Of a stretch of 64,000 nt of DNA, positions 2,355-56,716 are shown piece after piece. The notes under the pieces were generated by a model that worked only from the letters and a program-made list of their open reading frames with translations, was not told the origin of the DNA and made no database searches. The DNA lies in assembly GCA_964016885.1 (NCBI GenBank), contig OZ024749.1, positions 49,910,001-49,974,000 of the forward strand. The letters run 5' to 3'. The stretch is from Eledone cirrhosa. Lineage: Eukaryota. Every line of letters begins with the position of its first letter. The first letter of the stretch is position 1. A program made the translations under genes and the position numbers.

Positions 2355-3229
2355 TATTTCTGATGTCATTTAACTGAATCTGGTTGTATCGGAGAGTCCA
2401 TGTCTTCGAATAACGTTACACTACATTTACATGAACATTAACAACCTTTATGTTCAGAAATTAAAAAAAATACTACATTAAATCGTTTAATAATATTTTC
2501 AAAGACACAATGTGTATCGCTACATCCAAGATTAGAAAAAAAATCTTCTTTTAAAATCTGAGTTAAATGAGATAAGGTTTCCTCATACACAGTTATTCTA
2601 TTCTTAAAGGGTTACTAAATATAACTATATAATGTTGACTCTACCTTTAAAATAGTATTATTATTATTACTGTGCTTCTAGTTTTCTAACAATTTTCTTT
2701 ATCTAGTAGATGATGTTAAAATTGGATGTAGATTTCCATCAGTCGTACTTCTACGAATTACATTGAAACGATCGTCTATTCTCAGCATATATTATTTGAA
2801 AATATATAATTGATACAGGAGGTGTTGACGTAAATCGTGAAAGATATTTTGTGGTATAATCAACATTTCACATTGTGTATGGCTTTAAACCCTGTAGCAA
2901 CATTTAGAGTGAAATATATCTGACATATACATTAAATATTACAAATATAAACTTTGAAGTGATGTGCAGACGTAAGTAATTTATATATATATATATTTAC
3001 GTCCGTTAATACGAATTTGACAATTACAATAAATATCATTACTTATATAAATTCAGACCATACCTCATATAAGTTTAGTTACTTTTATTTTCCTTTTGAC
3101 TGACATATGCTGCTGCTGACAGATTATTGATATGTTTAGTTACAATTCTCAAAATATTATTGAGTCGTCCAGAAACAACATCTGCCACACACACACATGC
3201 GCGCGCGCACACACACACACATACATATA

Positions 3230-3329
<100 letters not shown>

Positions 3330-7668: not shown

Positions 7669-7852
7669 TGTTTCTGCTATTGGCACAAGGCCAGCAATTA
7701 TCCAGTACATTACTGGTACTTTATTTTATCCACCCCGTAAGGATGAAAGGCAAAGTTAACCTCGGCGGGATTTGAACTCAGAATGGCAAGGGTCGTAACT
7801 CTATGCGTCAAAGCATGGCCTCCGACCCTCTACCGATACTGCCAATTCACCG
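7669..7852 (-). mobile_element. SINE family A, full length, with TSD
   Basis: Reverse complement of the SINE consensus, with flanking direct repeat tccaaaataaatataat at 7652-7668 and 7853-7869. Confidence 0.92.
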
Positions 7853-34202: not shown

Positions 34203-34856
34203 TGAAATATTGTTGAAGTTTGCTTGAAGCATTATGGAATAATAAAATCGGTCGTTTTGGAAGCCTCAACAATGCAGATAGTAATGAGAGAGATGTGGGA
34301 AGAAATGTAGAATGAGACGTATAGGATGTAGAGGAACATAGGATAGAGTGTATGTACAAATAATAGACAACACGTGGTCTCTGTTGTAGGCCACGTGTTG
34401 TCCCTCACCGACTAAAAACGTTCCGCCTCGTAAAACCCCCCAGTTGATGGAGGCAAAATCCCAAATATAGGGACAATTAAATCACTTCCAAAGTAAGACT
34501 ATTTAGTGTTATTATTTGTACACAAGGGCGGTGGATTGGCAGTATCAGTAGAGAGTCGGACGCCATGCTTTCCAGTATAGTTACGTCCCTTTACGGTCTG
34601 AGTTCAAATGCCGCCGAGGTTAACTTTGCCTCTCATCCATCCTTACGGGGTCGATAAAATAAAGTACCAGTAATGTACTGGGTAATTGCTGGCCTTGTGC
34701 CAAAAGTACAAACAATTATTTGTACACCCAATCCTATGTTCCTCTACACCCTATACGTCTTATTCTACATTTCCTGTCTCATCTCTCTCATTACAACCTG
34801 CTTCTGTTACCCGGAGATTTACACATCTGCATTGTTGAGGCTTCGAAAACGTCCAG

Positions 34857-35749: not shown

Positions 35750-35892
35750 CGTATTTCTGTCACTTTATATTATCGACCCGGTAAGGATGAAACGCATAAT
35801 TAACCTTGGATGGATTTGAACTCAGAACGTAAAATGCCATCATAATATGTGATAAAGTATGTTTTCTGATGTTCTACCGATACTGCGATTCC
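35750..35892 (-). mobile_element. Degenerate SINE family A-related copy
   Basis: tatcgacccggtaaggatgaaa..gatttgaactcagaacgtaaa..tctaccgatactgc. Confidence 0.7.
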
Positions 35893-36575
35893 ATGATACA
35901 TAGCTTTCCATAACTTAATTACGTATATGATACTTCACAATTCTATAATACGCTAGGCTGTATTTATCTTCATACCTTTCATCGTGAAATGTCTTTAAAT
36001 GTCCACCACATGAGAGTGTCCGAGCTCCAGGTAGGTCATACAGTGAATAATTTATATCAAATTGACAACTCTGCTGAAGCAGCATGATACGTACAATATT
36101 ACACCATACACATTATTTCGAGCAGAGTATGTAAAATATATTTGATAATATTAATGCAACCCGGCAATATCTTTTGACAGATACGATACACACTTGGACG
36201 GAATTTTTTCATCAACAATGGCGATTACTGTTAGCATTCCAATGACAATTTAATTTCAGTACCCATCAAGAACGTCATGAAAATGATGTGATACAGTTTA
36301 AAACTATAGGATGTGAAATGCACGGAATTATTTGATTATTCTAAACGAATAAATAAGCAGTTACATTCCGTGATTTAGTCTCATAATCTATGAAAATTCC
36401 ATTCAGGAATAGATAGGTTCTACACGCAATAAACCCAAACACACGAGCGGATAACACGTAGAACATTCATACATAGGTGTTTCTGTGCGTCTTTATTTCT
36501 GGACTGCCTTAATATCGCCAAACATAAACTCATACTATATACATGATTGACATGAATAACATATTGCTCCTCCTT

Positions 36576-39321: not shown

Positions 39322-39525
39322 AAGGAAGGAAATGTGGTAAGGAACCAGATGGACTATAATGCACCAAAGTACTCAATACTTAGGGTAGTAGAGTGGGTGA
39401 TAGGAACGAATAGGACCCCGACGGCTGAGCTCAAGCCGTTTAGACGTCTAATTCTTGAATATGTAGTCCAAAATTGGCCGTCGAAACGGCTTGAGCTCAG
39501 CCGTCGGGGTCCTACTCGTTCCTAT
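39322..39525 (-). mobile_element. Fold-back family F copy
   Basis: Inverted repeat at 39400-39525. Near-identical architecture to 49420-49644, flanked by (TA)n. Confidence 0.85.
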
Positions 39526-39600
39526 TTATATATATATATATATATATATGAAAGACGTAAATAAGAAAGTTATGGAAATCGACTTACTTACTAATATACA

Positions 39601-43691: not shown

Positions 43692-43876
43692 TGTTTCTAC
43701 TTTAGGCACAAGGCCAGCAATTACCCAGTGCATTACTGGTACTTTATTTTATCGACCCCGTAAGGATGAAAGGCAAAGTCAACCTCGGCGGGATTTGAAC
43801 TCAGATCGTAAAGGGACGTAACTATGCTGGAAAGCATCGCGTCCGACCCTCTACCGATACTGCCAATCCACCGCCC
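43692..43876 (-). mobile_element. SINE family A, full length, with TSD
   Basis: TSD tcaataaatataat at 43678-43691 and 43877-43890. Confidence 0.93.
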
Positions 43877-46397: not shown

Positions 46398-46500
46398 TGT
46401 TTCTACTTTAGGTACAAACGGTATTTGAACTCAGACCATAAAAGGCCGTAACTCTTTGCTGCAAAGTATGGCGTCCGACCCTCTACCGATACGGCCAATA
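46398..46500 (-). mobile_element. SINE family A, internally deleted
   Basis: The 3' end (tgtttctactttaggtacaa) is joined directly to the B-box/head region. Confidence 0.8.
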
Positions 46501-46808: not shown

Positions 46809-46870
<62 letters not shown>

Positions 46871-46872
<2 letters not shown>

Positions 46873-47362
46873 CAAAGAAGGTGTGGCAAGACACCAGCTG
46901 GACCATAGACTACCAGAGCACTCGATAATTTGGGTAGAAAGTGGGTAATAGGAAAAGTATCACGACCCCGACGGCTGAGCCCCGGAACTTTAGATAGCTA
47001 GATCCGAACTAAACGAGTAGTATTAGGATGGCGGGAATCTAACTGAACATATCAAGGGGTACAGTCCATATATGGGCTTCAGTCAAAACAAAAAACGCAG
47101 AAATATCAAAGCAAATAATCCTAAACATGTTTTGTTTTTTCTTTCTGTCAGGGGGAATGGTCAATGTAATCTGACCAATGTCTTCTGTTTCTACTCTATG
47201 TCAAGTCAGTCAGTCATATTGATGTCCTCCCCACAGACCCGGCGGACATAATCGAGAAGGCGCTTCCCCGATGGACGGCAAGAGAGACACGCTGGAATAG
47301 CTATTCCAACTCGCGAGGATCACAACTGCGGCTGGCCAGTTCAGCACCTATGGTGGTGATAT
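46871..47362 (-). mobile_element. CRE-like non-LTR retrotransposon ORF end plus a ~340-bp 3' region homologous to fold-back family F, ending in (TA)n
   Basis: Reverse complement of 47360-47214 reads ITTIGAELASRSCDPRELE*LFQRVSLAVHRGSAFSIM, the CRE-type post-endonuclease motif LFQRLS.A.QRGNA. 46871-47015 aligns with 49420-49560. Confidence 0.7.
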
Positions 47363-48073
47363 ACGTGTGACTATATGGGAATATTTTATCCGTATAAGCT
47401 TAATTTCATTCACTCACAGCATATTACATTCATTTATAGGTTATATATGGCAATATGCGACCATTTTCAACTTTTCAGTTTCTAATTCGATTAAACATGT
47501 ATTTCATATCTTCCATGTGTTATATATTGAATTTCAATATATACGACATTCTTAGTGTCAGAAGCCCTGTTGTTCTTCTGTATCATTTTTCATTAGATAT
47601 TTCAATTTTAATTGAAACGTTGCTTCTAGGAGCTTCAGTAGTGTTTCTCATAAGGTTAATTCGGTTTTAATGCCACAGACACTGAAGTTATGTTCTCATA
47701 ATTCATGGCAATATTTTATTTCACTGAATATTTTAGCCTGCCGAACATTTTTGTTTGCTGTTCTTATATTTTTTTCACATTTCATATTTAGATATACATG
47801 TATAAGTACTTATCCTTAACAATGAATATTAATGTAATTTCCATTACATTATACCTTCGGCGATATATTTAACAAGTTTTCCTAGTCACCTACTAACATT
47901 TACACCATTAATGATATTACTGCTATTTCAATCTATTTCCAAATGAATGTTTCTACTTATGTTTCCAGACAATAAACATTCTTCGCCTGCCCACTTCTCA
48001 TGCACACAAGCATACAACCAACACCGAAACGCACACGGTCACATGCATATATACACACACACACATATCACAC

Positions 48074-49419: not shown

Positions 49420-49639
49420 AACGAAGGAAATGTGGTAAGGAACCAGGTGGACCATAATGCACCAAAGTACTCAATACTTAGGGTAGTAGAGTGGGTAATA
49501 GGAACGAGTAGGACCCCGACGGATGAGCTCAAGCCGTTTCGACGGCTAATTCTGGACTAAAAAAAAAAATGAATTTTTATTTTAGTCCCGAATTAGCCGT
49601 CGAAACGGCTTGAGCTCAGCCGTCGGGGTCCTACTCGTT

Positions 49640-49644
<5 letters not shown>
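49420..49644 (-). mobile_element. Fold-back family F copy
   Basis: Inverted repeat at 49498-49644, with the same breakpoints as 39322-39525. Confidence 0.85.
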
Positions 49645-56341: not shown

Positions 56342-56716
56342 GGGCGGTGGATTGGCAGTATCGGTGGAAAGTCGGACGCCGTGCTTTCCAGCATAGTTAC
56401 GTCCCTTTACGATCTGAGTTCAAATCCCGCCGAGGTTGACTTTGCCTTTCATCCTTACGGGATCGATAAAATAAAGTACCAGTAATGCACTGGGTAATTG
56501 CTGGCCTTGTGCCTAAAGTAGAAAAAAGTATGGGCGGTGGATTGGCAGTATCGGTAGAGGGTCGGACGCCATGCTTTCCAGCATAGTTACGTCTCTTTAC
56601 GATCTGAGTTCAAATCCCGCCGAGGTTGACTTTGCCTTTCACCCTTACGAGGTCGATAAAATAAAGTGCCAGTAATGTACTGGGCAATTGCTGGCCTTGT
56701 GCCTAAAGTAGAAACA
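56342..56716 (+). mobile_element. Head-to-tail dimer of full-length SINE family A inside one TSD
   Basis: Copies start at 56342 and 56532. TSD attatttaataagt at 56328-56341 and 56717-56730. Confidence 0.93.

Follow-up and report, generated by a model that had tools for sequence, protein, structure and literature searches.

Within the window, the whole 64,000-nucleotide stretch of Eledone cirrhosa DNA analysed here, the minus strand of one short segment carries the end of a CRE-like endonuclease ORF followed by a Penelope-type terminus anchored in a (TA)n run, which raises the question of whether a single retroelement possesses both. A sequence-only reading of this DNA proposed either a CRE-like lineage with Penelope-style ends that is the parent of the fold-back family F, or a chimera in which a Penelope terminus captured CRE sequence. 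The segment comprises the broken tails of two unrelated, abundant retrotransposon families, probably brought together when the second inserted directly behind the first; it is ordinary repeat debris and not a new hybrid element. The window is AT-rich and dense in microsatellites, and the genome measures 3.0 Gb. Both the CRE-like stub and the Hydra-clade stub are dead, and what is new here is two family members of known clades, found in a one-off join.

Architecture of the joined segment

The segment is composed of two element ends (Table 1). A CRE-like LINE contributes its last 189 bp (47359-47171, minus strand) and a Penelope-like element its last 302 bp (47173-46872, minus strand), with the family boundary 43 bp past the CRE-like stop. 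As had been described, the peptide DPRELE is encoded on the minus strand (47321-47304) and is followed by a stop; this TAG (47303-47301) is premature, as relatives have W at that position, and the ORF truly ends at the stop codon 47216-47214. The distance from the true stop to the (TA)n run is 342 bp, and the earlier figure of about 340 bp therefore holds as a length but not as the UTR of one element, as the family boundary lies within it. Likewise, the Penelope-like part extends well beyond the 145 bp or so first assigned to it, and the CRE match starts at 47359 rather than at 47362. The TATA stub may represent the opposite edge of the (TA)n run at 46811-46871.

A separate interspersed repeat of 80-140 bp, SINE-like by size, is present in many copies in the window (46419-46499, 7709-7846, 34532-34674, 35753-35893, 43732-43870, and 56348-56676).

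Table 1. Positions of the joined segment's features and of two fold-back copies, in window coordinates.
Feature	Position	Strand	Remarks
(TA)n run	46811..46871		3' end of the Penelope-like copy; target type of that element
Penelope-like 3' end, assigned to Hydra-clade subfamily T	46872..47173	-	302 bp, 5'-truncated
Predicted hammerhead-like fold, type I	46963..47065	-	decayed in window copy; alignment and pair counts
Junction, 3-bp overlap	47171..47173	-	CAG on minus strand; common to the CRE-like end and the Penelope-like start
Short 3' UTR, CRE-like subfamily b	47171..47213	-	window copy ends within the ragged zone of its relatives
CRE-like RT-CCHC-RLE ORF, last 48 codons and stop	47214..47359	-	5'-truncated; one premature stop
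TATA stub, 5' flank	47360..47363	-	from sequence
F fold-back copy	39322..39526	-	forward arm 39322-39461, inverted arm 39461-39526
F fold-back copy	49420..49644	-	forward arm 49420-49567, inverted arm 49572-49644

The CRE-like half

The window peptide matches a profile built from 26 database homologues of the CRE-like family's RT with an E value of 5.8e-8 locally and 5e-6 window-wide; Pfam is blank for the 28-aa peptide. A genome search with 47020-47362 yields 2,280 candidates. Among the best 40, the other 39 match the first 156-192 bases of the query only, their downstream sequences diverge at once, and none of these 39 scored copies runs into the Penelope-like piece. Long copies, obtained by walking upstream, encode a single ORF comprising an RT (YLDD), a CCHC knuckle, and a C-terminal restriction-like endonuclease with an RPD..D motif, which, together with the profile match, bears out the label of a CRE-like endonuclease end and provides the RT that extension in the 5' direction was expected to recover. 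The Pfam domain RVT_1 is detected in long copies L081/L108 and L089 (E 7.6e-9 and 5.3e-8), and no Pfam match is obtained for the nuclease part. The best solved relatives of the ORF are R2 proteins (E 9e-46), with a structure match that spans the RT through the nuclease (profile 221-931), and a Nymphon striatum protein automatically named SLACS is 34% identical in the RT and 47% identical in the nuclease. Atlas matches for the proteins carry generic RT names only. Many database homologues of the ORF also contain a PHD finger (PF00628).

Among molluscs, CRE-type LINEs are described as occurring almost exclusively in cephalopods, in the available part of PMC10294476, and the CRE clade is placed within the R2 group and makes target-site duplications (TSDs), according to the available part of PMC3636483. 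Similar to CRE1/2, SLACS, CZAR, Cnl1, and MoTeR, the family found here has a single ORF, a YLDD RT, a CCHC knuckle, and a C-terminal RPD..D nuclease. By eye, the nuclease retains the motif order of the clade, as C-x1-C-x9-H-x3-C-x8-RHA-x19-E-x10-RPD-x15-D. It differs from the SLACS/CRE spacing pattern, in the form given in the accessible text of PMC12857005, in three spacers that are off by one residue and in RHA in place of RHD/N; written as a regular expression, that spacing matches none of five CRE-like ORFs. In further contrast to the CRE clade, the family is dispersed, in about 27,000 copies, and no site-specific target (spliced leader or telomere) of the sort that characterises protist and fungal members is seen, the five CRE-like insertions in 550 kb having unrelated flanks; the window holds the last 189 bp only. 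Database searches for curated CRE/SLACS references returned just the one automatically named SLACS-like protein. Because site-specific insertion is not observed, the strict SLACS/CRE spacing is unmatched, and curated reference sequences for a tree were not found, the family is designated on its sequence features as CRE-like and not as a proven member of the CRE clade.

Candidate TSDs are found in 5 of 115 CRE-like copies with approximate boundaries, three of them clean (L004, L264, and L266), with lengths of 10-18 bp in some copies; no TSD is present at the window's CRE-like copy. The ends of the window copy's type scatter from about 18 nt before to about 12 nt after the window breakpoint and have no poly(A), and copies of another subfamily carry an A-rich tail and an AATAAA-like signal at their 3' ends (16 of 29, by eye). 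The 3' ends show no clear preference for microsatellites (19/114 against a 13% background). Across the family, one and the same ORF end precedes at least five short 3' UTRs that are unrelated to one another or related only in part (L002, L022, L082, L099, and L250). Some of these UTRs have ragged ends and lack a tail, and one has a tail rich in A; this diversity suggests repeated replacement of the 3' end in this family.

The Penelope-like half

A genome search with 46872-47167 gives 3,308 candidates, the best matches at 79-84%, and a TA run terminates about 25 of 32 Penelope-like family loci (counted by eye). Other copies of subfamily T extend upstream past the junction position, at first as non-CRE sequence of their own and further on as a GIY-YIG ORF and an RT. 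The T terminus lies downstream of the GIY-YIG ORF, co-oriented, in 13 of 20 loci; in L175, L178, and L186, an RT followed by a C-terminal GIY-YIG domain is colinear with the T terminus, and CRE sequence is found in none of the 20 T ORF loci. The GIY/YIG motif is visible in 12 of 20 T loci and 4 of 20 F loci, and the 20 T loci display the CxCX5C linker (15), CxxC (12), and CxH (14). The DKT motif is seen in L186 and L054, and RLRW-R in L186, most loci stopping short of that region. Domain searches are weak for these proteins: Pfam detects GIY-YIG at E 0.099 and has no match for fragments L175 and L185, and a PDB search with the Hydra RT returns zero matches. A Toxin_10 match on a GIY-YIG fragment (E 0.076) is below the cutoff and was discarded. 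The RT of L175 is colinear by eye with that of the published Hydra-1_Obim, and no alignment is obtained between the CRE-like RT and the Hydra RT (best E 3.9). The right half is, as its motifs indicate, a Hydra-clade Penelope-like element of subfamily T, and the idea of a Penelope-type, (TA)n-anchored end related to F is to that extent upheld.

The features of the Hydra clade, in the available text of PMC8557442 (Craig et al. 2021), include DKT, an RW motif, the CxCX5C linker, CxxC, CxH, and (TA)n targets, and Hydra-1_Obim of Octopus bimaculoides already appears in the supplement. The T and F elements share with Hydra-1_Obim and the clade the order of RT then GIY-YIG, the DKT and RW-type motifs, the linker, CxxC, and CxH; (TA)n insertion, an inverted 5' partner, and an optional tail are all present, and the 3' hammerhead of the clade has its counterpart here in a predicted hammerhead-like fold. 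They differ from Hydra-1_Obim in being a different family, with a predicted hammerhead sequence unlike the motif listed for it in the accessible part of that source and with a non-canonical core. They further differ from the clade in a tail of about 78 nt, about twice the 30-40 bp described for PLE tails, and in their number, about 98,000 copies.

The fold at the 3' end can be drawn as a three-helix type I hammerhead that fits both T and F, with pairing in 93.9% of 476 cells compared with 18-51% in slid controls and with one A-U/G-C swap between T and F. The pairing may be taken as modest support, the structure having been drawn from the same sequences and the rows being related. The core reads TTGATAA in most T copies (U3 with A8) and CTGAGAA in most F copies (C3 opposite A8). 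In the window copy, the core, the GAAA, and stem III are altered. Rfam searches of nine loci at E<=1 return no hammerhead, just microsatellite-driven miRNA noise. The fold is thus best described as predicted and hammerhead-like, with a non-canonical core. The core of F is non-canonical even though F is the younger and commoner subfamily.

Other Penelope-like material is also visible. In L043:1-407 (L112:6041-6760), a Hydra copy is joined at its 5' end to a piece of RT in antisense orientation (YVDD) that belongs to another family, probably a Penelope-like one; no continuation was seen on the far side. Two additional Penelope-like families are represented by GIY-YIG fragments on the opposite strand in L199 (near 2740-3280) and L205 (near 2840-3283), one of them Hydra-like with 33% identity to subfamily T.

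The fold-back family F

The region next to the (TA)n run is homologous to the fold-backs of the window, as had been reported: 46868-47013 aligns to the fold-back at 49420 with about 73-74% identity and a score of 97 (best of 300 shuffles, 27), and 46874-46980 aligns to that at 39322 with a score of 86 (best shuffle, 28). Both fold-backs are true palindromes. A longer F copy, L165, taken from random DNA, led to 2,251 candidates. Long F copies extend back into the CxCX5C linker and a GIY-YIG ORF that is about 68-73% identical to that of T; in L200 and L204, this ORF and the F terminus are colinear. CRE sequence is found in none of 20 F loci. Judged by these sequences, F is a subfamily of Hydra elements, sister to T, that has a GIY-YIG ORF of its own and does not descend from a CRE element.

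Most F copies are very short and have an inverted 5' arm. In query coordinates, the inverted arms stop at base 65 and the forward arms at base 143, so the optional tail is 78 nt long. The same two fixed ends, 78 nt apart, are seen in T and F copies (the window fold-backs and L189-L207); the end of the inverted arms lies about 22 nt beyond the predicted hammerhead cut, and that of the forward arms 78 nt further. In another PLE, two reverse-transcription start sites yield such tails, in the available part of PMC11167929, and by analogy two start sites may make the T and F tails here too. In a random 550 kb, Hydra-clade copies are mostly fold-backs of 100-250 bp that are broken in the region of hammerhead stem II (L113-L167).

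Uniqueness of the join and chance expectation

The sequence-only reading suggested a genome search for co-occurrence of the ORF end and the terminus, and the outcome went against a shared lineage. A 121-nt junction query returns 37 candidates, all of which were scored, and only the window itself spans the join; 17 match the CRE side only, ending at query position 60 or earlier, and 19 match the PLE side only, starting at 58 or later. With the whole 491-nt query, the window scores 886 bits, and the other 39 of the best 40 among 4,772 candidates score at most 309 bits, so that 1 of the 40 scored contains the join. No direct abutment of CRE and PLE sequence occurs in 114 CRE-anchored loci (which include two duplicate pairs) and 79 PLE-anchored loci (0/193). 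The join is unique among the copies examined; the genome searches score the best 40 candidates, a depth at which a very diverged second join could be missed.

The closest co-oriented pairs of CRE then Hydra are L038:173-1807 (gap 43) and L093:911-2214 (gap 102). Their breakpoints differ from the window join, and 35-100 bp of unrelated DNA or microsatellite separates the two parts.

In a sample of 55 arbitrary 10-kb stretches (550 kb), five CRE-like insertions, one of them a distant relative, and 18 PLE clusters are found. Extrapolated from these 550 kb, the genome has about 27,000 CRE-like copies (95% range 9,000-64,000) and about 98,000 Hydra/PLE copies (58,000-155,000), or about one of the latter per 30 kb. 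At these densities, about 7-13 joins as tight as that in the window are expected genome-wide by chance. PLE clusters lie within 1.5 kb of CRE loci 17 times compared with 11.7 expected (P 0.09; P 0.19 without the two duplicated loci), and CRE lies within 1.5 kb of PLE loci once compared with 2.4 expected; co-location is not clearly enriched overall in this test on 193 sampled loci. The two close co-oriented pairs mildly exceed the 0.24-0.5 expected (P 0.03-0.09), at a gap threshold that was chosen afterwards.

Origin of the join

The join probably arose in two steps, through independent insertions that used one (TA)n run, the second being joined at its 5' end by microhomology. The CRE copy would have come first, by target-primed reverse transcription with 5' truncation, and would end within the ragged zone that is usual for its family. 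A nick by the Hydra endonuclease in the (TA)n run just behind the CRE copy would follow, about 300 nt of Hydra RNA would be copied, and the new Hydra 5' end would anneal to the upstream DNA through CAG, with removal of a few intervening bases. An identical scar would result if the Hydra copy had come first, or if two neighbouring elements had later been fused by a deletion at microhomology. Sequential insertion is favoured because the CRE end is in its normal zone, Hydra elements target (TA)n, and Hydra 5' ends are found fused to unrelated non-TA DNA elsewhere, for example in L043. An automatic classification of the 5' boundaries of PLE copies gave a TA count of 6 of 31, which was set aside because several boundaries had been misplaced. 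A precedent is the nested Pen2_Av copy (Arkhipova et al.), a Penelope element that sits within a non-LTR element, lacks a TSD, and has a 5' junction at microhomology, in the accessible portion of PMC3846280. The window join shares with it a Penelope 5' end on a non-LTR element, the microhomology, and the lack of a TSD, and differs in that both partners are short stubs and the order of events is reconstructed. A profile of PLE upstream sequence finds no PLE remainder 5' of the CRE stub, and insertion of the CRE element into an intact PLE copy would therefore need a deletion. Flank pairing aimed at rebuilding empty sites gave no pair among 106 copies, and RAD-seq runs of three other samples have no coverage at the join site. 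No empty-site allele is seen, and the order of the insertion events, like their number, is inferred.

Four observations stand against two sequential insertions: the equal variant loads of the halves, the CRE end in its natural zone, the TATA stub that flanks the unit, and the excess of L038/L093-type pairs. All four fit a single event, an alternative that we consider unlikely, though well ahead of those below. In this scheme, the Hydra RT would begin synthesis from the (TA)n run and proceed through 302 nt of Hydra RNA; at CAG, the enzyme would switch to the 3' end of a CRE RNA, extend over 189 nt of this second template, and join the upstream TA stub, leaving a dead, unamplified chimera. The part of the CRE copied ends where subfamily b RNAs appear to end, and Penelope repeats can mobilise unrelated sequence in trans, according to the available part of PMC3846280. 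The non-CpG rare-variant loads of the two halves are 13/140 (9.3%) and 25/273 (9.2%; P=1.0), in comparison sets that are best matches and biased to young copies; all-site divergence is 16/188 in the CRE-like half and 39/300 in the Penelope-like half. Equal age is not decisive because of that bias and because unselected CRE-like copies span 71-95% identity, so that two independent copies may be similar in age. Against a single event, none of the 193 loci has another direct join, several such joins are predicted by chance, and the spacers of L038 and L093 are of a kind that a template jump would not leave. The proposal that a Penelope terminus captured CRE sequence fails for a lineage and survives just as this one dead event.

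An assembly error joining two repeat copies is very improbable: high-copy repeats lie on both sides of the join, but a short-read contig, probably from the assembled sample, matches 47097-47200 without difference at a depth of about 9 compared with about 10 in the unique flank, weak evidence as the contig extends 27 bases past the join and the bridging rule asks for 31. The least credible reading is the hybrid lineage, in which family F would descend from a CRE-like element equipped with a Penelope-type end in (TA)n. All that speaks for it is the local adjacency, the 73-74% match to F, and the capacity of a CRE family with several unrelated 3' UTRs to acquire new ends. To the depth of these searches it is refuted: no second instance of the join turned up among the copies examined, the two halves belong to elements with separate ORFs, the CRE copies end in UTRs of their own, and the parent of F is a Hydra-type GIY-YIG element.

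Implications for retroelement 3' ends

Template-switch chimeras of the U6/L1 type recur, with many independent junctions. The window join resembles them in that the 3' end of one RNA is fused upstream of a retroelement 3' end, and differs in being a single case, between two retroelement classes, with no recurrence seen. Literature searches for a CRE/Penelope hybrid found none within their coverage, which left out most subscription papers and Repbase.

Read as two insertions, the locus matters little, as two clades, both known from cephalopods, touch once. The doubtful alternative, a single cross-class jump in which a Hydra-clade RT left the Hydra RNA for the 3' end of a CRE LINE RNA, would have wider consequences. 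If true, it would be a snapshot of how the CRE family could gain several unrelated 3' ends; if it held genome-wide, it would show that LINE RNAs serve Penelope-like enzymes as switch templates in vivo, which current models of Penelope-like 5' junctions do not include, and it would offer a way for retroelement classes to exchange 3' ends. The by-product of the analysis may be more useful: a Hydra family that numbers about 98,000 copies, has a 78-nt tail, and carries predicted, non-canonical hammerhead-like cores.
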